Assembly (NCBI GenBank): GCA_038061925.1
Contig: JBBTYD010000015.1
Span: 1 to 47,472 of the forward strand
Source: Patescibacteria group bacterium
GTDB taxonomy: Bacteria; Patescibacteriota; Minisyncoccia; Phycocordibacterales; UBA9973
Direction: 5' to 3'
Length of the DNA: 47,472 bases
In this document: piece by piece, positions 12,161 through 30,539 of the stretch
Numbering within the stretch: position 1 is the first letter of the stretch
How the letters are laid out: every line of letters starts with the position of its first letter
Position numbers and translations under genes: made by a program
Notes under the pieces: generated by a model
Told to the model about the DNA's origin: nothing
Seen by the model: only the letters and a program-made list of their open reading frames with translations
Database searches by the model: none

Positions 12161-12493
12161 ATGAAAAATATCGGAGAAAATATAAAAGAAATGGATTGGA
12201 ATATCACAAAAAATAACCAACTCATCCAGGCCATTTTGACTCTTAAAAATGCTAATGAAGCAAAACTTTTTTTGCGCGACCTTCTGACCCAAGGCGAAAT
12301 CAAAAAATTCGCGAATCGCCTTGAAGCTGCTTCCTTGCTTTCTAAAGACGTGCAATACAACGCCATCATTGAAAATAATGGCCTTTCTTCCACAACTGTT
12401 GCTCGAATATCAAAATGGCTCAAAGGTAACTCAGGCGGATATAGGTTAATTTTACCTAGGTTAGAAAATCATCATCACACAACCAAACCTTGA
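12161..12493 (+). CDS. TrpR-family repressor YerC/YecD (HisR-like)
   Basis: FLRDLLTxxEI..RL..A..L....Y..I....GLSSTTVARIS.WL....GGY; ends NHHHTTKP. Confidence 0.9.
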   Translation: MKNIGENIKEMDWNITKNNQLIQAILTLKNANEAKLFLRDLLTQGEIKKFANRLEAASLLSKDVQYNAIIENNGLSSTTVARISKWLKGNSGGYRLILPRLENHHHTTKP

Positions 12494-13184: not shown

Positions 13185-14093
13185 CTAAAGAATTTTCTCC
13201 CGCAATCTGGCAATCTGGTAAATACTAAATAAGAGAATAAGAGCGGCAATCCATTGGGTAATAGATAGTATGGTGTGATTTACTATCATATCCAGAAAAA
13301 TAGCGAAAAAAGGAAAAGTTAATTCCAAAATAGTGGAAATATGAACCGGAGTTTTTGCAAGCCCTTTGTAATAAATAAGTAAAGCCACCATACCAGTAGA
13401 GAGAGCGATAAGCGCTAATAAACCAAATTGAGAAGCAGTTGGCGTAGCTAAACCTCCGCCAGTTGTATCCCCAAATAAAAGCAAGAATGGCAAGGCAACT
13501 AATACTGTGACCAAAAATCTATAAAAAGTGCTAACTTTGAAATCCACTTTTCCCAAAAGCATCTTAGAAAATGTGGTCGAAGAACCCCAAGCAAATGCCG
13601 CGCCGAGCGCATATAACGCAGCGATAATAGTTCCTTCGCCAGTCGCAAAATTTATATATCCATTTTTGAAGGTTACAAAATAAGCGGCGATTATCGCGAG
13701 CAAGGCCCATTTTATATATCTTTTATCAAATTTTTCTTTTAGGAAAATACTGGCAGTAAAAACAGCAAAAATCGGCTGAAGTTTTTGCAAGAGGAATACC
13801 ACTGAAATAGAAATAAAATGTACTTTACCAAGCGCTGTTGTAAACCATAACGTGCCAAAAAGTCCGCTTAAAATTGCAATCAAAACAATCAGCCACCATT
13901 CACGCTTCGTTAATTTTGTTTTTAAGACATATTTATAAACAAACGGAGATAAAATTATCAAACCAATCAAGTGCTCAAAGAAAATTATTGTAATCGGTGG
14001 AAGAGAATATAAATGCTGACGGATGAGACCATCAAAGGCCCAGAGCGTCGCTGCAACAAGAATGAAAATTGGTCCAGTATAATCTTTTAGCAT
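13185..14093 (-). CDS. EamA/DMT-family transporter
   Basis: About 10 TM helices, two EamA repeats (LQPIF...FLKEK). Confidence 0.88.
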   Translation of the reverse strand: MLKDYTGPIFILVAATLWAFDGLIRQHLYSLPPITIIFFEHLIGLIILSPFVYKYVLKTKLTKREWWLIVLIAILSGLFGTLWFTTALGKVHFISISVVFLLQKLQPIFAVFTASIFLKEKFDKRYIKWALLAIIAAYFVTFKNGYINFATGEGTIIAALYALGAAFAWGSSTTFSKMLLGKVDFKVSTFYRFLVTVLVALPFLLLFGDTTGGGLATPTASQFGLLALIALSTGMVALLIYYKGLAKTPVHISTILELTFPFFAIFLDMIVNHTILSITQWIAALILLFSIYQIARLREKIL

Positions 14094-14416
14094 AATTTTA
14101 AATCTTTTTTAATCTGCGTTATTAATTCTTCTTCTGTATCAAATTTTTTGTACTGTCTTAAAAATTTTTTTATTTGGATGGTCACTTCTTTTCCGTATGC
14201 ATTTTCATTATATCCTATTAAATGCCCCTCAATTTTCTCTCCTGGACCAACAACGATACCCGCTCTGTATTTCTTGCCATCCAGTATAACATTCCCCGAG
14301 TAAATTCCAGATGGGAGCATATCTTTTTTTTTGGTCTCTAAGTTGACTGTCGGGAAACCGATTTTTTTTCCGTATCCATCCCCCTTAATAACTTTGCCAG
14401 AAATTAGGTAACTCAT
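14087..14416 (-). CDS. Monofunctional riboflavin kinase (RibF C-terminal domain only)
   Basis: GxGxGxxIGFPTxNL, ExH, YG, LR..KKF...EEL..QI..D. Confidence 0.85.
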   Translation of the reverse strand: MSYLISGKVIKGDGYGKKIGFPTVNLETKKKDMLPSGIYSGNVILDGKKYRAGIVVGPGEKIEGHLIGYNENAYGKEVTIQIKKFLRQYKKFDTEEELITQIKKDLKLC

Positions 14417-14420
14417 TTAT

Positions 14421-15761
14421 TTATTCTGAAAGTCTTTCATCAATTCTTTCCATGTCTCTCGGAAACATGCAGGCTTCACGTATATTTTTAAGTCCTAGAA
14501 GTTGCATGGTGATCCTTTCCGCACCAAAAGCAAAACCGCCTTCTGGTGGCACACCGTATTTAAACGCTTCCAAAAACATTTTGATTTTTTTGGGATCCAT
14601 CTTCCACAATTTCACATGTTCCATCAGCTGGTCATATTTATTGATCCTGCGCCCTCCGGAGAGCCATTCCAAACCACGACACAATAAATCCATACCGTGA
14701 TTAAATTCTGGATTTTCTGGATTTGGATAGACATAAAAAGGCTTTTTACGTGTCGGATAACCATAAACAAACACGAAATCCGAATCGGTTTCTTTTTTAA
14801 CAATTTCACATATTTCTCTTTCATCTTGCGGATTTAAATCTTTTTCTCCCCGCACATCACGTTTAAAATGTTTGAAAATTTGTTCCTGCGCCTCCGAAAG
14901 AGAAAAAGTCGGAGTCTTTTTTATCATCGTTGGAAGTTCCGCTTTCAAAAGTTTTAATTCGGAAGCATTTCTTTCTTTTACTTTTTCTAAAATAAACCGA
15001 ACCGTTTCTTCCGCAACATCTCGCACGTCCTCCCAGCCGTCGATAAAGGCCATTTCTGCGTCGAGCGATACAATTTCGGTCAAATGCCGTGTCGTTGCAG
15101 AAGGCTCGGCACGAAAAATTTTATTGACAGAGAAAACTCTTTCAAAAGCAGACATAACTATTTGTTTATACAATTGAGGAGATTGGGTAAGAAAAGCTTT
15201 TTTATCAAAATAATCAATCTGAAAAACTTCACTTCCCCCTTCGGCAACTGCTGGCGTGATACTCGGAGCCTGAAATTCAAAAAACATATTTTTTTTCATA
15301 AATTCTCGAAAAGCATCTATGATGGTCTCTTGCACTTTAAAAACAGCTTGAATTTTGGGATAACGTAAAACAAGAGCGCGATTGTCCAACTCAGTGGTTA
15401 ATTCTAGATTATATCCATCAAACGACATATCGAAAGGAAGCGACTCAGCTTCGGCTAAAACCTCAATACCCGTAACTTCAAGTTCCACCTCGCCATTTAA
15501 TATTCCAGCTTTTATATTTTGAGGCGGACGTTTATTCACAATGCCAGTAATTTTTAAAACCCACTCAAGTCTTACTGGTTTTATTTTTTCTATCACTTCC
15601 GCTCGACTCGGCAAAGCCACACATTGCACCTTGCCGGTCATATCCCGCATATCAAAAAAAACCATTTTCCCCTGATCGCGCCTAACATTTACCCAGCCGG
15701 CAATGATAACTTTTTTTCCCACTTTGTCTTTTAAATCCTTGATATATATTCTGTCTTTCAT
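14421..15761 (-). CDS. aspS: Aspartyl-tRNA synthetase, short non-discriminating type
   Basis: N-terminal OB fold, LTQSPQLYKQ, FRAE, RHLTE, GVPPEGGFAFGAER, FPRD. Confidence 0.92.
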   Translation of the reverse strand: MKDRIYIKDLKDKVGKKVIIAGWVNVRRDQGKMVFFDMRDMTGKVQCVALPSRAEVIEKIKPVRLEWVLKITGIVNKRPPQNIKAGILNGEVELEVTGIEVLAEAESLPFDMSFDGYNLELTTELDNRALVLRYPKIQAVFKVQETIIDAFREFMKKNMFFEFQAPSITPAVAEGGSEVFQIDYFDKKAFLTQSPQLYKQIVMSAFERVFSVNKIFRAEPSATTRHLTEIVSLDAEMAFIDGWEDVRDVAEETVRFILEKVKERNASELKLLKAELPTMIKKTPTFSLSEAQEQIFKHFKRDVRGEKDLNPQDEREICEIVKKETDSDFVFVYGYPTRKKPFYVYPNPENPEFNHGMDLLCRGLEWLSGGRRINKYDQLMEHVKLWKMDPKKIKMFLEAFKYGVPPEGGFAFGAERITMQLLGLKNIREACMFPRDMERIDERLSE

Positions 15762-15812
15762 AACAAAACTATTTTATCACGAATTAAAAAAGAAAAACAG
15801 TCTAAAAAGTTG

Positions 15813-16226
15813 CTAATTAAATTTATTAAAATATGTCTTATATTCTTTTAGATATTTGTTATTAGTAGTAAAATAAAATTTTGATTTATCTTTAATTTTC
15901 TTTTTGAAAAAAAGTTTATTTCCATCAATTATAATCATTCTTTTGTAATTTTTTGATTTTGTGTGTTTACCTGAAAAAAATAATTTTTTCTCTTTAACCC
16001 CTTTTAAAAAATACTTATATTGTTTTACAGAACCAAAAACTATTCTTTTAATTTTAACTCCCTGTTTATTTTTTCTATTCAATAAAGAAAAATACTTTAC
16101 AGGCAACGGAGAGAGTTGTTCTTCAGTAATATTCATTGTAGCTAAAATTTCATTTTTAGCTTTTCTAATTTCAGATATTACTTCTTTCTGTATATTTTCT
16201 TTTTTTATTTCCTCAAGATTTCTCAT
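15813..16226 (-). CDS. Hypothetical, very AT/Lys-rich; weak resemblance to a TrmB C-terminal/PLD-like domain
   Basis: I..AKNEI, GVKIKRI, MIIIDGNKLFF pattern. Confidence 0.5.
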   Translation of the reverse strand: MRNLEEIKKENIQKEVISEIRKAKNEILATMNITEEQLSPLPVKYFSLLNRKNKQGVKIKRIVFGSVKQYKYFLKGVKEKKLFFSGKHTKSKNYKRMIIIDGNKLFFKKKIKDKSKFYFTTNNKYLKEYKTYFNKFN

Positions 16227-16265
16227 TTTAATTTTTAAACTATAAATACTTTAACAAATATAAGA

Positions 16266-16313
16266 AAATAATAAAAGGGCGAGGACTGTTGCAATGAACG
16301 AGCTCTCGCCCTT
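16266..16313 (-). terminator. Intrinsic terminator of the Trp-leader operon
   Basis: Minus strand AAGGGCGAG...CTCGCCCTTTTATTATTTT, 20 bp after the stop at 16334. Confidence 0.7.
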
Positions 16314-16333
16314 GATTTTTTCTTTCCGCCCAA

Positions 16334-17785
16334 CTATGGGCTAGCTGTAAACGTAAACCGAAACGAGTGAAGCCTCGGACCAGTATCACTTGTTATCATG
16401 CTGTTGTTGCTTGTGATTGGTAACTCTCTGATTGCAAGATTCACATTCTCGAGCTTCCCTTCACCTTGATGCAGTCTAATCCTTTTCATTAATTGCTTCC
16501 AAGAGTGGTGAATTCCCCTGTGAACTGGGACAATCTCCTTACCATTCAGACTCATATGAAGGAGCTCTGCCTTAATTCCATTTTTTGAGAGTCTTGCATC
16601 CACTCTCGAGATTACCTCATCTACCACAACTCCTTCCATGGGATTACAATCAACTATGCTGAGAAACTTGCTCATGAAATGGCTGGGAACAGTGCTTTCT
16701 CGTAGTCCAGTCAGTTCACGTGACGCAAGCTGAAGATATGGACTCGGGTAACAGACAAGCTCCCCGCGCCCATAGCGTTCCAACAATACGACTCCATGCT
16801 CAGCGATGTTGAGAAGTAAGCAAGTTGCGCCAGTAGGAATTTCTCCCACCCGACTTATACTCTTTACCTCAACCTGAATACCCATCTTATGGAATTTTTT
16901 AGAAATGCTCTGGATCTCAAAGAACTCTAGAACATCCTCGTTTCGCTCCAACACTTCATCCCGAGTGACCATATAGACCACTCGAGGGTCAAGCGAATCT
17001 AGAACCTTAACAAAAACCTGGTCCTGAATTCGGTGCACTACATCCTGGATTTCGAAGGCAATGGAATTTCGGAGCTCGAGTTCAGTCAAGAAGAATCCAA
17101 CATCGGGAAAATGGAGCCTCTCAACTACAACTTCTCCATTCGTCGTCACAAATACGTCTGCGAGAAAATAAAGAAATTGCTCATTAGAATTAAATCCAGC
17201 CTTTTCTGTCGCCAGATCCTGAACCTTATCGAGCAACTGCCCTACTGCATCTGTGACCTTTTGTATAATGTCGTCTCCAAATATAATAGGCGACGAAAGT
17301 AATGCAGGACGAATAAAGAAGAACGGCATTCTTCCTTTCTCCGCCTCACGAGACTTTGCGAGTAATGGTTCAAGAATTCGGTAAGTATTCTTAAGATCCA
17401 TTCCCTTGAACACTTCTCGGAGTTCTTGTAGTGTGTCTGGATTGTGTTTAAGATATAATTCAGGAATGATTAATCCTTCTTCCTTGACGATTCTCCTGAC
17501 CGAAAGATCGGTTTTTCTAATACCTCGATCAATATGAAACGGAAGAAAGTTTCCACCCATTCCTTGGTCGGTCTTAAGCATCGGCCGGTAAAAGCCTATA
17601 CCCCGCATCATCTGTTTCAGACGTCCATTATCTGAAGGAAAGAATGCGTTGAGAATTTCCATCGGAGGATTTTCACGTGTTTTTTTCATTTGAACCTGAA
17701 AATTCCCACCTCTGGATAAAAATACATCAAGCCCAACACTTGAAGATTTAATTCTGCCACCGATCGACACTATACTGATCTTCAT
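16334..17785 (-). CDS. Hypothetical 483-aa protein, possibly a divergent circularly permuted ATP-grasp ligase
   Basis: Long ORF with strong SD (AGGAGG). YFLADVFVTTNGEVVVERLHFPDVGF resembles the D...G..ExN motif; RGELVCYPSP resembles GxVxxxNP. Confidence 0.6.
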   Translation of the reverse strand: MKISIVSIGGRIKSSSVGLDVFLSRGGNFQVQMKKTRENPPMEILNAFFPSDNGRLKQMMRGIGFYRPMLKTDQGMGGNFLPFHIDRGIRKTDLSVRRIVKEEGLIIPELYLKHNPDTLQELREVFKGMDLKNTYRILEPLLAKSREAEKGRMPFFFIRPALLSSPIIFGDDIIQKVTDAVGQLLDKVQDLATEKAGFNSNEQFLYFLADVFVTTNGEVVVERLHFPDVGFFLTELELRNSIAFEIQDVVHRIQDQVFVKVLDSLDPRVVYMVTRDEVLERNEDVLEFFEIQSISKKFHKMGIQVEVKSISRVGEIPTGATCLLLNIAEHGVVLLERYGRGELVCYPSPYLQLASRELTGLRESTVPSHFMSKFLSIVDCNPMEGVVVDEVISRVDARLSKNGIKAELLHMSLNGKEIVPVHRGIHHSWKQLMKRIRLHQGEGKLENVNLAIRELPITSNNSMITSDTGPRLHSFRFTFTASP

Positions 17786-17949
17786 TTTCCCCTCCTTTCT
17801 TGTTGCTGTCTAATTAGACAGCAAATACCAAGGAAAAGAAATAGTATTGGGATATAAATACTCTTGTCAAAGAATACAAAATCCCCTATGCCCGCCACAC
17901 TAAAGGCAATAAAATACCAACCAATCATTTTTTTCCAATGTGTTTTCAT
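17782..17949 (-). CDS. Small 55-aa protein with two hydrophobic segments
   Basis: Not in the ORF track. MKTHWKKMIGWYFIAFSVAGIGDFVFFDKSIYIPILFLFLGICCLIRQQQERRGK; AAGGA SD; ATGA overlap with the 483-aa gene. Confidence 0.65.
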   Translation of the reverse strand: MKTHWKKMIGWYFIAFSVAGIGDFVFFDKSIYIPILFLFLGICCLIRQQQERRGK

Positions 17950-18050
17950 TTTTTTCCTTTTTCTGCTGAATTATAAAATCACTTATTTAGGTAGATTCCT
18001 TCACCTGAGAATTTTTTAAAAGTTTTCACAAACTCAATTACTGTCAAAGA

Positions 18051-18155
18051 ACAAAAAAAGCGCTTGTGCGCCACTTAATGGATTTCTTGTTTAGATAAAT
18101 ATATAAAAAGAAATCAACAGAATAGCGCAAAAACAGAAGTTTTTACGCCCCGCCA
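18051..18155 (-). promoter_or_regulatory. Putative tryptophan attenuator
   Basis: 1:2 helix GGCGUAAAAAC-UUCU-GUUUUUGCGCU; 2:3 helix GCGCUAUU..GAUUUCUU/AAGAAAUC..AGUGGCGC; 3:4 helix GGCGC-ACAA-GCGC followed by U7. Confidence 0.65.
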
Positions 18156-18194
18156 AGATTTCATTAATTTATTGATTTTAAAATTATTTTTCAT
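18114..18194 (-). CDS. Putative Trp leader peptide (26 aa)
   Basis: MKNNFKINKLMKSWRGVKTSVFALFC; single TGG one codon 5' of helix 1:2. Confidence 0.55.
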   Translation of the reverse strand: MKNNFKINKLMKSWRGVKTSVFALFC

Positions 18195-18269
18195 GGTTCG
18201 GTTTTACTCACCATGACCTCTTCGAGCTTGAGTCTCAGAGCGAAGACCTGAGTTTTTCGAATGGGTCAT
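18192..18269. repeat. Two adjacent REP-like palindromic elements
   Basis: CATGGTTCGGTTTTACTCACCATG, and ATGACC-TCTTCGAGCTTGAGTCTCAGAGCGAAGACCTGAG...GGTCAT. The second has a relative at 41291-41340. Confidence 0.6.
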
Positions 18270-18300
18270 ATTTTTCTTACACATATATAATTTTTTCCTT

Positions 18301-18346
18301 GTATCTATGTACTAGTACATAGTAACAGAGGAAAAAAATAATGCAA
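18301..18346 (-). promoter_or_regulatory. Promoter with TrpR-like operator
   Basis: Perfect palindrome CTATGTACTAGTACATAG (18305-22) overlapping TGn-TACTAT -10; TTGCAT -35 at 18346-41 (16-bp spacer); directly downstream of trpR. Confidence 0.7.
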
Positions 18347-18385
18347 ATAGCATCTGTGGATAACTTCATATTTAGTTATTTAATA

Positions 18386-18682
18386 CTATTTACCTAATTT
18401 CTTTAACATTAGATGAAAACCGCCATTTTTATTACGAAGTTCACGAGATCCTCGGGTAACAGTGCTTATGCCAAGACCTAAATTCCCTGCTATAGACCTA
18501 TGTGTTTCTCCTTTATTAAGCTTTTTAACTATCTGCCATCTTAAAGCTAAAGCTTCAAATTCCGCTGGCGTCAGAATATCTATCAAGAACTCAGTCATTA
18601 ATTTTCTATCTCCAAAAATTTTAGAAAAAACTTCTACTAGCTCTTGCTTGTATTCTGGAATTTTTTTATTTATGTGCTTCAT
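18386..18682 (-). CDS. trpR: Trp repressor
   Basis: LTPAE..AL..RWQIV..L..GETHR.IA..LG.GISTVTRGSREL; 3 bp downstream of trpS. Confidence 0.88.
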   Translation of the reverse strand: MKHINKKIPEYKQELVEVFSKIFGDRKLMTEFLIDILTPAEFEALALRWQIVKKLNKGETHRSIAGNLGLGISTVTRGSRELRNKNGGFHLMLKKLGK

Positions 18683-18685
18683 TTT

Positions 18686-19636
18686 TTAATAAACATTAAC
18701 TCCGATTTTCTTTCGTACTTCCTCCATTTTCTTTGAAGCTACTTTTTTAGCTTTCTCACCACCGGCTTTTAGGATCGTTAGCGCTTTGGGGATATCTTTC
18801 GCAAATTCTTTTCTTTTTTGTCGCAAGGGCGCAATAAATTTTTCCAAATCTTCTATTAGCAATTCTTTTAATTCTTTATATTTGCCTGCTTTATTTTTGT
18901 AGATAGACAGAAGTTCTGATGCAGGACGAAGTAAATTATGTATCGCATAGACATTTTTTGGAATTCCTTCATCTGAATCTGTGACAATGCCCATCACCGC
19001 CTTTTTTATTTCCTCATATTCAGCAAAAAGCGGAATAGTATTGCCATAACTTTTAGACATTTTGCGTCCATCCGTTCCCGGTACAGTCGCTACCTCTTTC
19101 CTAATCATTGGATTGGGTAATTTAAAAGTTTCTCCATATATCCGATTAAATTTTTCTGCCAAATCGCAGGCTATCTCCACATGCTGTTTTTGGTCTGCTC
19201 CGACCGGCACTAAATCAGGACCGTAGAGTAAAATATCAGCCGCCATCAAAACGGGATAATTAAAAGTGCCGACATCAATTTCTTTATTCTTCGCCTCTGC
19301 ATCCTTGAAAGCATGGGCACGCATTAAATATGGCATTGTGATAATCGTATCAAAAATCCAAGCAAGTTCTGTGTGCTCAGAAATGTCACTTTGTTTGAAA
19401 AATGTTACTTTTTCCGAATCAAGACCAATCGCTAAATAATCAAGCAAAACATTCTTTATGTTTTCATTCATTTCTTTTGAATTTCTAAGAGAATGTAAAG
19501 CATGATAATCAGCTATAAAAACATAGCCATCATGCTCATTCTGTAAATCAACAAATTGTTTCATCGCTCCAAAATAGTTGCCAATATGAGGCTTTCCTGA
19601 AGGCTGAACACCCGATAAAAATACCTTTTCGCTCAT
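18686..19636 (-). CDS. trpS: Tryptophanyl-tRNA synthetase
   Basis: SGVQPSG, HIGNYFGA, YPVLMAADIL, VPVGADQKQH, KMSKS. Confidence 0.97.
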   Translation of the reverse strand: MSEKVFLSGVQPSGKPHIGNYFGAMKQFVDLQNEHDGYVFIADYHALHSLRNSKEMNENIKNVLLDYLAIGLDSEKVTFFKQSDISEHTELAWIFDTIITMPYLMRAHAFKDAEAKNKEIDVGTFNYPVLMAADILLYGPDLVPVGADQKQHVEIACDLAEKFNRIYGETFKLPNPMIRKEVATVPGTDGRKMSKSYGNTIPLFAEYEEIKKAVMGIVTDSDEGIPKNVYAIHNLLRPASELLSIYKNKAGKYKELKELLIEDLEKFIAPLRQKRKEFAKDIPKALTILKAGGEKAKKVASKKMEEVRKKIGVNVY

Positions 19637-19748
19637 TTTTTTATTTTAACACAAAATCATAAAAAGGGCATTTTTTTCTCCACATTTTAGTAACAGTTTT
19701 ACGCACTTTTTTATTTTGATAATTTTTCGATTATGCTAGAATGATTTC

Positions 19749-21161
19749 ATGGTAAAAACAACAACCAATATCACAAAAAATAAACAAAAAAATATTCGTA
19801 TTCCGCCTCAGAGTATTGAATCAGAACAAGCAGTGTTAGGTTCAATAATGCTCCGCAGAGACGCGATGCATGAAGTGGAGGATATAGTAAGTCCTGAGTC
19901 TTTCTATGTTGAAAAACATAAAAAGATCTTCCAAGCAATGCTCGACCTTTCAAATAAAAACGAACCAATAGATGTGCTTTCACTATCCACCAAGCTTGAG
20001 GAACAAAAACTGCTTGATAATGTTGGAGGCAATGTTTATCTGGCGGAAATAGTCAACATCGTCCCTTCCTCCATTAATATCAAACACTACGCGGATATTG
20101 TGCAAAAAAAATATGTTCTTCGAAGTTTGATAGAAGCGGCAGATTATGTGTCTGAACTCGCCTTCGAAGAAAGTGATGACCACATGGACGATATACTAGA
20201 TATGGCGGAAAAAAAAATTTTTAGCGTAATCTCATCTCCCAAAAATCAAAAATTTATAAATTTGAAAGACGCGTTACCGGAAGCTTGGGAACGTCTTGAA
20301 AAATTACATGAACACAAAGGAATGTTGCGTGGACTGCCAACTGGATTTAAAGATTTAGACAATATGCTCTCCGGACTGCAAAAATCCGACTTGGTAATCA
20401 TTGCCGCGCGACCCAGCATGGGTAAAACCACCCTGGCTCTGGATATCGCGCGTCTGACATCAACGATTCACGAAAAATCCGTAGTTATATTTTCTCTGGA
20501 AATGTCATCTCAACAATTAGTGGATAGAATGCTTTCAGCCGAGAGCCGCGTGAATGCTTGGAATTTGCGTACCGGACGTTTGTCTTCAGACAAAGAATTC
20601 TCCCAACTTCGCGATTCGCTAGACAAGCTCGCTAAAGCTAAAATTTATATTGATGACCAGCCGGGAAATTCAATCGTTAGAATGAAAGCCCTCTCGCGCA
20701 GATTAAAAGCGGAAAAAGGACTTGATTTAATTGTGGTTGATTATTTACAGCTTATGACAACTTCCAAAAATTATGATTCAATGGTCAATCAAGTGACAGA
20801 AATTAGCCGGTCACTCAAGAGTTTGGCAAAAGAATTAAACGTACCGGTACTCGCACTTTCCCAGCTTTCTCGCGCGGTAGAGAGCAGAGGTGGCAAACCA
20901 AGACTTTCAGACCTTCGTGATTCAGGATCCATCGAACAAGATGCAGATGTCGTAATGTTTTTGCATAGAGATGATAAAGGGAAAGAGGAATCAGAAAAAA
21001 CAAATATCGTTGAAATTTTAATTGAAAAACATAGAAATGGACCAACTGGAAAAATCGAACTTTATTTCGATGAAAAGACTACGACATTTCAAACTCTTGA
21101 AAAAAGCAACATTAGCGAATTTGCTCCCGCAAAAGTTAAAGGAGATTTAGATGAATTTTAA
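19749..21161 (+). CDS. dnaB: Replicative DNA helicase
   Basis: AARPSMGKT, FSLEMS, VDYLQL, LSQLSR, DLRDSGSIEQDAD, KHRNGPTG. Confidence 0.98.
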   Translation: MVKTTTNITKNKQKNIRIPPQSIESEQAVLGSIMLRRDAMHEVEDIVSPESFYVEKHKKIFQAMLDLSNKNEPIDVLSLSTKLEEQKLLDNVGGNVYLAEIVNIVPSSINIKHYADIVQKKYVLRSLIEAADYVSELAFEESDDHMDDILDMAEKKIFSVISSPKNQKFINLKDALPEAWERLEKLHEHKGMLRGLPTGFKDLDNMLSGLQKSDLVIIAARPSMGKTTLALDIARLTSTIHEKSVVIFSLEMSSQQLVDRMLSAESRVNAWNLRTGRLSSDKEFSQLRDSLDKLAKAKIYIDDQPGNSIVRMKALSRRLKAEKGLDLIVVDYLQLMTTSKNYDSMVNQVTEISRSLKSLAKELNVPVLALSQLSRAVESRGGKPRLSDLRDSGSIEQDADVVMFLHRDDKGKEESEKTNIVEILIEKHRNGPTGKIELYFDEKTTTFQTLEKSNISEFAPAKVKGDLDEF

Positions 21162-28719: not shown

Positions 28720-30507
28720 TTAATAAACTTCCTGCTGATAACATTTTTCGCAATACACTATTTCTGGACGCTCAGGAGCATAATTTGTCTCAAATTCCAC
28801 ATCGCATTTCCTTATTCCGTGAAAATGATTTTTGTTTCGCCCGTCGAAGCTTTGCGAAGTCGGGTCACACATACAAGACCTGTGCCAGAGTTTTGGCGGA
28901 TTAACTTTTTTAAATCGTTCTTGATGCCTACACTCAAAACAATTACGTGGTAACGGTAAATTAAATCTTTTTAAAAAAATGTATTCATTTTGGATTATTT
29001 TATAAGGTCTTTTACAAGAACCACATTCAATAATTAAACTTAAAACATTTTCATTAGCACCTTCTATATGGTCAGATAAATCTTCGGACAAACATGTAGT
29101 TTTGTATTCCGACTTTTCCTTCTCAATATAATTATAACCGTTCTTCAAAATTGTTTCTTGGGAAAGTGGAAAATAATCTTGTGATACCGTTTCATTGTAT
29201 CCAAAGGGAGAAATTTCTATTGGAAAATATTCTCCATATCCATATTTATTTCCCCTTTTATCAATATAAAACACTTTGTTCATTTGTTTAATAATCAATT
29301 CTCGAAGCTTTCCAAACTCAACTTTCTCATACTGTTTGTTAAAAATACAATAATTTTTATTGCGAAGACCAACACAACCAAAAATATTATTGCACCCATG
29401 ACAGTTAAAAGAATATTCAGCGTTTAGACACTCCCAGACTGTAAGCACAAATAATTGGCTAGAACCATTCACGCCGGAATCCATACCCTCATATAGCAAT
29501 TCCACAAGACCAAGACCGTAGCCGTCATAACTATCTTTAGTACGAAATGAATTCATCAGGAACTTACAATCTTTTATTTCTTCAAGCACCCCAAAACAAG
29601 CTTTAGAATTGTCTGCATGAAAGATATCATCTCCGGAAACATCTGTTGAATTTATAATATTGGCAAATCTTCTTTTGGCACTCAATTTTAGCTTTTCAAA
29701 TTTTTCTTTTGCTTTTTTAAAGTTTTTAAAACTTCCAATGTCTAATGCTTTTAATTTTTTATTATATTCGTCTTTGGTTAACTGCACATTCCACATACAA
29801 TTAGACTTATTACGAAGTGATATACAGCCAAAACAATTTATACAATTTTTACAGTCATAAAGAAAATATGAGCTAGTGCAAGAATCAGCATTATGTGAGA
29901 AAAATGTTTCATAACATTTTGTGGAGGAAATGTCATCATAACAAAATTCACATTTAGTAGTTATATACATATCCATTGAATCTTTACAAAAATTACAGCG
30001 TGATGCATAAATCACATTTTCTCCTTCCCAAGACGCGGATATAAGGTAGGAATTTCTAAATTCACCAATATAATTACCATAAAAAGTGTTAACACATTTA
30101 CCAATAAAAAGATTTGGATGAGGAACTTTTTCTAGTAATTTTTTAAATTGAGAGAAAAACGATTTTTGAAAATCATACTGAATACCGTAGTCTGTTGGAT
30201 CCCATCCGTCACCCCACCAAATATCTCTTTCGTATATCGTAAAAGGAGATTCTTTGGAAAAACAACTAATTAAACTTTTCCCAGTTTTAGCGCATTTATT
30301 TCTATGAAGTGTACGTTCATTGCGCCAAGCCATACGTCTTTGCATTCGACATTCTGGACAAAACGTCGGTGGTGGCACTTTTATTTTTTCATAAAAATTA
30401 AAATCTTCCGATTCTATGATAAAATCTTTTTTACAGTTTTGGCATATTAAAGATACTGAGCTTTTCGAATGTATTCTTTTTTTATTTTTTTTTCTAATAC
30501 TATTCAT
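28720..30507 (-). CDS. Cys-rich repeat protein, paralog 1 (Zn-ribbon ends, beta-helix-like core)
   Basis: CQNC..F.I...DF.FYEKIKVPPPTFCPECR...CFGC..LR.K...YAPERPEIVYCEKCYQQEVY. Confidence 0.85.
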   Translation of the reverse strand: MNSIRKKNKKRIHSKSSVSLICQNCKKDFIIESEDFNFYEKIKVPPPTFCPECRMQRRMAWRNERTLHRNKCAKTGKSLISCFSKESPFTIYERDIWWGDGWDPTDYGIQYDFQKSFFSQFKKLLEKVPHPNLFIGKCVNTFYGNYIGEFRNSYLISASWEGENVIYASRCNFCKDSMDMYITTKCEFCYDDISSTKCYETFFSHNADSCTSSYFLYDCKNCINCFGCISLRNKSNCMWNVQLTKDEYNKKLKALDIGSFKNFKKAKEKFEKLKLSAKRRFANIINSTDVSGDDIFHADNSKACFGVLEEIKDCKFLMNSFRTKDSYDGYGLGLVELLYEGMDSGVNGSSQLFVLTVWECLNAEYSFNCHGCNNIFGCVGLRNKNYCIFNKQYEKVEFGKLRELIIKQMNKVFYIDKRGNKYGYGEYFPIEISPFGYNETVSQDYFPLSQETILKNGYNYIEKEKSEYKTTCLSEDLSDHIEGANENVLSLIIECGSCKRPYKIIQNEYIFLKRFNLPLPRNCFECRHQERFKKVNPPKLWHRSCMCDPTSQSFDGRNKNHFHGIRKCDVEFETNYAPERPEIVYCEKCYQQEVY

Positions 30508-30514
30508 ATATTTA

Positions 30515-30539
30515 GTATCTATGTACTAGTACATAGTAA
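30515..30539 (-). promoter_or_regulatory. Second copy of the TrpR-like operator
   Basis: GTATCTATGTACTAGTACATAGTAA, identical to 18301-18325, 7 bp upstream of ATG 30507. Confidence 0.7.

Follow-up and report, generated by a model that had tools for sequence, protein, structure and literature searches.

A 47,472-nucleotide (nt) stretch of DNA from a Patescibacteria group bacterium (contig JBBTYD010000015.1 of assembly GCA_038061925.1, positions 1 to 47,472), hereafter the window, carries a compact control cassette for tryptophan (Trp). The cassette comprises trpS, trpR, a promoter with a putative TrpR-type operator, and a leader peptide gene with an attenuator. Judged from sequence comparison, it is very probably a real Trp-shortage switch of the kind described for Escherichia coli and Chlamydia. 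Behind it, where related genomes hold genes of Trp and aromatic metabolism, lies a gene of a sequence-orphan family, called X here, which encodes 483 amino acids (aa) and is followed by a conserved partner of 137 aa, called Y. It is likely that X-Y is functionally tied to Trp or to tRNA-Trp. The overall explanation that we favour, a Trp-shortage switch placed in front of X-Y acting as a ligase module for Trp or tRNA-Trp, stands at about an even chance.

The source organism is a small groundwater bacterium of the Patescibacteria (Candidate Phyla Radiation, CPR), and relatives of its genome carry Patescibacteria labels. The genome holding the window (contig C15) is 596 kb in size and 94.5% complete, with 37.6% G+C. 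The genes trpE, trpD, trpA and trpB and a Trp/Tyr permease were not found in this genome at that completeness and, because the biosynthetic trp genes were not found, the organism must import Trp. On the minus strand, the locus reads trpS, trpR, promoter with operator, a 106-nt stretch, the leader open reading frame (ORF), the attenuator, a 55-aa ORF, X, a terminator and Y (Table 1).

The proposed mechanism has two levels of control. When Trp is plentiful, TrpR would occupy the ACTAGT-centred palindrome abutting the -10 hexamer and initiation would be blocked. When charged tRNA-Trp is scarce, a ribosome would stall at the Trp codon of the leader and prevent helix 1:2, which would allow the 2:3 antiterminator to form and transcription to read through to the 55-aa ORF and X. 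When translation reaches the stop codon, segment 2 would be covered, and the 3:4 hairpin with its U7 run would terminate. Y lies behind a second predicted terminator, after X. We infer that X is induced by Trp limitation. The X enzyme might activate a carboxylate with ATP and couple it to Trp taken from Trp-tRNA(Trp), the product of the co-encoded tryptophanyl-tRNA synthetase (TrpRS), or might act on Trp directly. An auxotroph could use such a reaction to acquire, salvage or spare Trp.

Table 1. Coordinates of the cassette, its cargo and the second operator copy in the window (UTR, untranslated region; PLD, phospholipase D; PEARL, peptide aminoacyl-tRNA ligase)
Feature	Position	Strand	Basis or remark
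trpS, sole tryptophanyl-tRNA synthetase gene found in the genome	18686..19636	-	PF00579, E 3.8e-61
trpR, Trp-repressor family, 98 aa	18386..18682	-	PF01371, 65.5 bits against a cut-off of 27
Promoter: -35 TTGCAT, 16-nt spacer, -10 TACTAT	18319..18346	-	read from the sequence
Putative TrpR-type operator CTATGTACTAGTACATAG, perfect 18-bp palindrome with ACTAGT core	18305..18322	.	abuts the -10
5'-UTR insert, 106 nt, unique to the window genome	18195..18300	-	absent from close X loci and sister loci
Leader ORF MKNNFKINKLMKSWRGVKTSVFALFC, 26 codons and stop	18114..18194	-	13 other distinct sequences have homologous leaders
Regulatory codons TGG CGG (Trp-Arg)	18150..18155	-	read from the sequence
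Helix 1:2, predicted pause / anti-antiterminator hairpin, 11 pairs	18124..18149	-	starts directly after the CGG codon
Predicted antiterminator, helix 2:3, long interrupted stem spanning the leader stop codon	18061..18135	-	RNAalifold consensus
Predicted attenuator terminator, helix 3:4, GGCGC-ACAA-GCGCT then T7	18053..18072	-	hairpin at 18072..18059
55-aa ORF with two hydrophobic stretches, optional	17782..17949	-	overlaps X by ATGA
X, 483 aa, sequence-orphan family, LanB/PEARL-glutamylation and permuted ATP-grasp fold	16334..17785	-	predicted model
Hairpin and U-run terminator after X	16264..16313	-	seen at each of the 6 close loci checked
Y, 137 aa, conserved partner of X, PLD-like fold	15813..16226	-	beyond the terminator after X
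Second operator copy, 24 nt identical (30516-30539)	30519..30536	.	12-29 nt upstream of the 595-aa gene
595-aa Cys-rich treble-clef zinc-finger gene	28720..30507	-	zf_Tbcl, E 3.6e-4, below its cut-off

The cassette and its cargo in sister genomes

A search of 40 other genomes of the same genus for TrpR orthologues (E 1e-28 or better) gave eight sister loci. A predicted operator with the ACTAGT core lies 3' of trpS-trpR in all eight, and a leader homologous to that of the window, with the same downstream helices, is present in six. The cargo that follows differs from genome to genome. In G013 (L089) it is trpE (TIGR00564, 539.6 bits against a cut-off of 517.7), after which come 5-enolpyruvylshikimate-3-phosphate (EPSP) synthase-shikimate kinase, dehydroquinase-shikimate dehydrogenase, 3-deoxy-D-arabino-heptulosonate-7-phosphate (DAHP) synthase, dehydroquinate synthase and chorismate synthase. 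In G034 (L079) it is trpD, interrupted by the contig end (185 bits), and in G012 (L090) a TrpB-like pyridoxal phosphate (PLP) enzyme (NF009057, 741 bits) with phosphoribosyl pyrophosphate (PRPP) synthetase (prs). G035 holds a small ORF and PRPP synthetase, G032 small ORFs and prephenate dehydratase, and G006 a 223-aa protein without an assigned family next to a histidine-phosphatase-family protein. G018 has kept its leader, with a degraded terminator and no cargo, and the contig of G020 ends at the cargo slot. The aromatic gene sets of G013, G012 and G034 look like partial pathways (trpE with a near-complete shikimate set; TrpB-like with prs; trpD).

Beyond the cargo, a class II aspS-like gene follows in six of the eight loci, wherever the contig continues, and in the two loci scanned that far (G012 and G032) it is succeeded by a riboflavin kinase and an EamA transporter gene. 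All three of these genes also lie in the window, at 15761..13185. The shared cassette and the differing cargo across the sister genomes point to a trpS-trpR-operator-leader cassette that is ancestral in the genus and has a variable cargo slot. In the window genome, X stands in this slot in place of trp or aromatic genes and, because the slot holds trp genes in relatives, the cargo appears to have been swapped behind a retained leader. A TrpB-like gene occurs in two of the 40 genus genomes searched and in none of the ten other X-bearing genomes, which at this base rate is uninformative on complementarity. The literature search found no report of combined repressor and leader-peptide control of Trp genes in Patescibacteria, nor a description of X-Y.

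The repressor gene of the window matches PF01371 over residues 14-96 (E 4.6e-18); it scores below the cut-off of the equivalog model TIGR01321 (48.7 bits against 67.25), which leaves its functional orthology uncertified by that model. A tblastn search of the genome gave a single TrpRS-like place and a separate match of 25% identity on contig C5. The window also holds a second, distant TrpR-family paralogue of 110 aa at 12161-12493 on the plus strand, with 36% identity to TrpR over residues 30-96, and the ORF after it resembles, by eye, a phosphoribosyl-AMP cyclohydrolase.

The operator consensus of E. coli TrpR has a CTAG core. The predicted operator with its ACTAGT core is present in all close X loci compared, and a predicted operator lies 5' of trpR in ten distant trpR-X operons. 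The promoter hexamers are identical in relatives and equally spaced from the operator; a consensus promoter scan did not list the TTGCAT/TACTAT promoter. The exact 10-mer GTACTAGTAC of the operator core has only two copies in the genome, and the second one (Table 1) precedes the zinc-finger gene of 595 aa, which may form the TrpR regulon together with the trpR locus. This zinc-finger gene adjoins a 554-aa paralogue and has TraG/VirD4-like ATPases to either side of it. A perfect 9-mer, TTATCCACA, which we take to be the DnaA-box consensus, is found on the minus strand at 18355-18363, about 9 nt upstream of the -35 hexamer; it is kept between trpR and promoter in most relatives and has 21 copies in the genome.

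The leader and its three helices

Fourteen distinct homologous leaders were compared, eight of them before X (that of the window and those of seven loci in public collections) and six from sister genomes. At the regulatory position, TGG TGG is found in ten of the leaders and TGG CGR in four, namely those of the window, L031, L060 and G013, the last of which precedes trpE. The earlier, sequence-only reading of this region had suggested that TGG CGG could be a decayed TGG TGG. Trp-Arg recurs in four leaders, however, and in one of these a trpE operon follows, so that the single Trp codon of the window is better understood as a recurring variant than as decay peculiar to its genome.

The three mutually exclusive helices are conserved well beyond what sliding the pairing partners along the alignment would give. 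Helix 1:2 has 84.4% of its cells paired across the 14 sequences (38-60% with partners slid), the 25-pair antiterminator 91.5% in the 14-row alignment (42-49% with the 3' partners slid), and the attenuator terminator 88.8% (28-57% slid), with two pairs showing compensatory change. In the antiterminator, seven pairs show compensatory change (17 cells), and its covariation score was reached by none of 500 shuffles, a statistic that overstates independence since the 14 leaders share kinship; this weighs against the switch, and the slid-partner controls give a fairer picture. For the leader region (18300..18040), the folding energy is -62.1 kcal/mol, compared with -47.3 +/- 4.2 for shuffles (z -3.56; none of 200 as stable). 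A bare terminator scan alone is not significant (five found, 2.8 +/- 1.6 expected), and for this reason the weight of the attenuator case lies on conservation.

The first eight leaders were folded under three constraints. As free RNA, helix 1:2 and the terminator formed in all eight. When the mask reached as far as a ribosome that has stalled at the Trp codon would, the minimum-energy fold was the antiterminator in five of the eight; a mask extending to the stop codon gave the terminator in all eight. The window leader itself takes the antiterminator under the stall mask and the terminator under the stop mask, with the leader ORF and all three helices intact. An Rfam covariance scan of 15500-20000 (E up to 10) returned five chance-level matches and no trp-leader, T-box or riboswitch family. 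The sequence-only reading had described the promoter, palindrome, leader ORF, pause helix, antiterminator, hairpin with U7, ATGA-coupled ORFs and terminator; all are present on the minus strand and their coordinates hold. Its proposal that a TrpR operator and a Trp attenuator act together here is supported, as far as sequence comparison goes, by the trp cargo of the sister genomes and by the conserved helices.

Within the 106 nt inserted between operator and leader lies one copy of a hairpin repeat that is dispersed in the genome, with partial copies at C15:41290-41315 and C17:2231-2254. A tRNA origin was considered for the insert and rejected, as no tRNA was found in the window and the insert matches the repeat instead.

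X, Y and their probable ties to tryptophan

Homologues of X number 50 in a word-indexed search, and the locus set used here comprises 74 X loci, many of them truncated. Y follows X in 49 of these loci, and trpR and/or trpS lie near X in 32. Among close relatives of X (60% identity or more), trpR is upstream in 11 of 11. A distant subfamily (26-29% identity) is arranged as operator-trpR-X-Y-trpS, with stops and starts often overlapping. In L016, L022/L073, L026 and L039, X comes after leaders that are unrelated to that of the window but have W-W or W-x-W and a terminator. Of 79 short ORFs that begin with ATG and lie in the 300 nt before X, nine encode W-W or W-x-W (five of the nine are mutually homologous); the opposite strand gives none of 72, and shuffled sequences give 16 of 1907. 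In L072, a tRNA-Trp (CCA) gene (1721-1793) stands directly upstream of the X homologue and is itself preceded by a hairpin with U7, whose 3' arm contains TGGTGG. Other neighbours, at L012 1439-3596, L019 4079-4981 and L026 6575-7204, include B3/4-domain proteins in the X operon of L012 and L026, an AstE/AspA-type deacylase between trpR and X in L019, and an enolase-superfamily (MR_MLE) gene beside trpR in L012. The high-G+C X loci from outside the Patescibacteria gave crude ORF calls without a Pfam match, L015 excepted.

Because these Trp ties arise independently in distant lineages, X-Y appears to be a Trp-linked module and more than a passenger, and on the sequence evidence it looks tied to Trp INDEPENDENTLY of this cassette. 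The sequence-only reading had proposed such a Trp module, and that part of it gains from the ties just described; the gene pair that it named, the 55-aa ORF with X, has to be corrected, since the conserved pair is X and Y. The 55-aa ORF is found in two of eight distinct close lineages, the window and L060 (same place; 47% identity, E 3.3e-12), and Pfam and NCBIfam gave nothing usable for it. The terminator between X and Y has a near-invariant loop, CGTTCATYGCAAC, in the window, L003, L004, L030, L031 and L033, with stem changes that are compensatory by eye, which suggests that the loop is recognised by some factor.

Searches of Pfam and NCBIfam with X gave no match. Its AlphaFold model is confident (predicted local distance difference test, pLDDT, 90.2; predicted template modelling score, pTM, 0.91), and an exhaustive structural comparison, with Foldseek in agreement, gives matches to two enzyme groups. 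The best match is the glutamylation domain of TbtB (Z 14.9, root-mean-square deviation 4.7, 407 residues aligned, model residues 6-480), followed among such domains by MibB (Z 12.5), MadB (12.4), NisB (11.9) and GodF (11.1). Over residues of about 93-483, the model also matches the permuted ATP-grasp enzymes YgiC (Z 12.0, 270 residues aligned), GspS (10.8) and glutathione synthetases (10.2-10.8). Permuted ATP-grasp ligases carry out ATP-dependent carboxylate-amine ligation. Foldseek gives E 2e-6 for NisB and 7.6e-6 for glutathione synthetase; the TM-scores of the glutamylation-domain matches are only 0.37-0.47 by query length. Judged from its model, X would be a ligase derived from ATP-grasp enzymes that shares its fold with the tRNA-dependent LanB/PEARL glutamylation domain. 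Its invariant residues include R476, F477, D210 and D228, F475 is near-invariant, and D210 and E/D222 then H/N225 lie on adjacent strands. The N-terminal residues 1-92 bear invariant KTDQG and RxK motifs. For the PEARL/LanB glutamylation domain, adenine-stacking Arg/Phe and acidic/Arg residues that serve ATP binding are described (PMC11117183); catalytic roles for R476/F477, D210, E222 and H/N225 of X are guesses. In the same paper, of 2024, PEARLs and LanBs are argued to descend from ATP-grasp enzymes, a descent from which the double resemblance of X is to be expected, and half-size homologues are mentioned, among which the X family may be.

For Y, Pfam and NCBIfam again gave nothing usable, and the model (pLDDT 93.8) is a single PLD-like domain that matches FAM83B (Z 13.9), NucT (13.6), TrmBL2 (13.2) and Nuc (12.4), with 22 chains at Z of at least 8. 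The catalytic motif of the PLD superfamily is HxKx4D. Y has Y94-x-R96-x4-D101 at that place and no invariant His in alignment A2, where its invariant residues are T30, Y45, K52, G56, R61, F64, G65 and D101. Because YxRx4D replaces the catalytic motif, Y is probably a binding module, that is, judging from its model, a catalytically dead PLD-fold protein acting as a binding or specificity subunit. A complex prediction for X with Y (score 0.00, mark 0.32) is evidence neither way. The usual place of Y is taken in L026 and L021 by a protein of about 200 aa. The module shows a steep change of G+C at 15800-17800, from 0.41-0.47 in X to about 0.21-0.30 in Y, with a genome mean of 0.376.

Weighing the readings

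A Trp-tRNA-using PEARL that adds Trp is described (PMC11117183, PMC11962472). That X is tRNA-dependent is conceivable, if somewhat doubtful. The more specific proposal is an unlikely one, namely that X-Y puts the PEARL/LanB scaffold to use in primary metabolism, as an ATP- and tRNA(Trp)-dependent activity that ultra-small Trp auxotrophs switch on when charged tRNA-Trp is short. Under this proposal, with the same low probability, the module might make, rescue or re-route Trp on tRNA, or might couple Trp-tRNA to an acceptor in order to obtain host Trp.

Several observations weigh against the favoured explanation, in which a working switch governs a Trp ligase module. With regard to the switch, three of the eight leaders, those with 11-pair terminators, still form the terminator at equilibrium under the stall mask, and their antiterminator would have to win kinetically. 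The window copy has one Trp codon, a 5-pair terminator stem and the 106-nt foreign insert in its 5' UTR, and could be a weakened copy. With regard to X, none of 32 aligned members has a relevant Pfam match (including Lant_dehydr_N and the ATP-grasp families), a sequence search of the PDB with the X profile gave two chance matches only (E about 0.6), and a HMMER profile search of 1.84 billion proteins gave 94 clusters, all of them the X family or its fragments. X is also about half the size of a PEARL, no conserved scaffold-peptide gene was seen, and an enzyme that consumes Trp-tRNA is ill matched to induction under a shortage of charged tRNA-Trp. About 12 homologues (Gemmatimonadota, Legionellales, Rhodanobacteraceae) are without Trp linkage, and in L015 the X homologue is flanked by a non-ribosomal peptide synthetase (NRPS) and an aminotransferase. 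Finally, the G+C of X (0.41-0.47) is above that of its flanks, and X is accessory and was possibly acquired recently: a search of 36 same-genus and 24 same-order genomes gave no X, one weak 16-bit match being taken as chance.

The main rival, itself unlikely, holds that X is a tRNA-independent ATP-grasp amidoligase acting on free Trp or a derivative (for example in the salvage of acylated or D-Trp), with Y binding the small substrate; the resemblance to LanBs and PEARLs would then reflect shared ATP-grasp ancestry only. Induction by Trp shortage suits such a salvage enzyme better than it suits a consumer of Trp-tRNA, and the deacylase of L019 and the MR_MLE gene of L012 would be fitting operon neighbours. 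The matches to YgiC, GspS and the glutathione synthetases over residues 93-483 (Z 10-12) are what this reading expects, as is the resemblance of Y to the ligand-binding PLD-like domains of TrmB and TrmBL2 (Z 11.8-13.2), and as a guess from the model, D210, E/D222 and H/N225 on adjacent strands may resemble the Mg-binding residues of ATP-grasp enzymes. The leads from the ESM Atlas are likewise all ATP-grasp (TTL family), though weak (0.77), below trust level and from an Atlas model with pTM 0.23. However, the best and only full-length fold matches are tRNA-dependent glutamylation domains (407 residues aligned for TbtB against 270 for YgiC). In addition, X is tightly coupled to trpS, adjoins tRNA-Trp in one locus and has neighbours with B3/4, a tRNA-editing fold.

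A second alternative, which we regard as improbable, accepts the switch as real and takes the window copy to be decaying, with X near-constitutive or under TrpR alone. The replacement of W-W by W-R, the terminator stem of 5 pairs where L003, L004, L032 and L033 have 8-11, the insert unique to the window genome, and the example of G018, in which a leader persists with a degraded terminator and without cargo, would all fit. On the other side, W-R is shared by four of the 14 leaders, G013 with its trpE among them, and the window copy keeps its leader ORF and three helices and behaves in the masked folds as expected of an attenuator.

It is quite improbable that X and Y are passengers without any bearing on Trp that came to occupy a variable site downstream of a trp leader that had been kept. 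The genes held at this site, which extends from trpR to the aspS-like gene, do differ in each sister genome, a search of the other 36 genus genomes gave no X, and the G+C of X is unusual. Against this stand the independent Trp signals of distant lineages (the operator-trpR-X-Y-trpS order, the unrelated W-W leaders and the neighbouring tRNA-Trp), and every nameable other cargo of the slot is a gene of Trp, aromatic or PRPP supply. The sequence-only reading had offered, as its own alternative, foreign genes that replaced trp genes; replacement agrees with a slot that holds trp genes in relatives, but X-Y is tied to Trp elsewhere and would not be a mere passenger. We rejected the remaining notion, to which we give almost no credence, that the leader ORF is a scaffold peptide extended by a PEARL-like X, instead of or besides being an attenuator: the fold of X, the hydrophobic C-terminal end common to the close leaders and the extension of small scaffold peptides at their C termini by PEARLs (PMC11962472) invite it, but trpE and a TrpB-like gene have the same leader before them in genomes that gave no X when searched, the conserved codons at the C-terminal end of the leader coincide with segment 2 of helices with compensatory changes, and distant-lineage leaders share W codons alone.

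If the Trp-shortage switch is real, as is very probable, the textbook double control of trp genes, by repressor and leader-peptide attenuation, would extend to the Patescibacteria, and it would do so as a portable trpS-trpR-operator-leader cassette with exchangeable cargo. The cassette would then serve as a natural label, as a gene behind it is probably needed under Trp shortage, and it is this label that singles out X and Y. Should X be tRNA-dependent, PEARL/LanB chemistry would extend from antibiotic biosynthesis to the core physiology of symbiotic auxotrophs, and X would be a compact version of the fold. On the unlikely primary-metabolism proposal, X would also stand, at half size, as a minimal representative of the missing link between ATP-grasp ligases and the tRNA-dependent LanB/PEARL enzymes.

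Among known systems, the trp operon of E. coli shares with the window a repressor site at the promoter with a CTAG operator core, a leader with Trp codons, exclusive 1:2, 2:3 and 3:4 helices and a U-run. Unlike it, the window locus belongs to the phylum Patescibacteria, shows no sequence similarity to the E. coli one, has trpR and trpS directly upstream, uses a predicted antiterminator that is a 25-pair interrupted stem over the stop codon, and has cargo other than trp biosynthesis. The trpR-trpL-trpBA locus of Chlamydia trachomatis, as described in PMC7755916, is similar in belonging to a bacterium with a reduced genome that depends on a host, and in having trpR followed directly by an intergenic region under regulation and by genes for Trp salvage; its cargo is tryptophan synthase, whereas in the window it is the orphan ligase-like X, and trpS lies within the window cassette.

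With the PEARLs (for example the Trp-adding BhaB7/BhaB-C-Trp) and the LanB/TbtB domains, X shares a predicted fold over its whole length (Z 11.1-14.9) and the link to trpS and tRNA-Trp. It differs from them in having no detectable sequence similarity, about half the length, no scaffold-peptide gene and no cluster for a ribosomally synthesised and post-translationally modified peptide (RiPP), and in occurring in minimal genomes under predicted Trp-starvation control, paired with a PLD-fold protein. The permuted ATP-grasp ligases (glutathionylspermidine synthetase, YgiC/YjfC and the eukaryotic glutathione synthetase) are like X over residues of about 93-483 (Z 10.2-12.0); X differs by the extra N-terminal part 1-92 and by having no Pfam match. 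Y is like the non-catalytic PLD folds, FAM83 DUF1669 and the C-terminal domain of TrmB/TrmBL2, in being a single domain without the catalytic His, and unlike FAM83 and TrmB in being a stand-alone protein of 137 aa encoded beside X, with an invariant residue set of its own. Three things are new here, foremost among them the orphan X-Y module; the other two are the phylum and the portability of the cassette.

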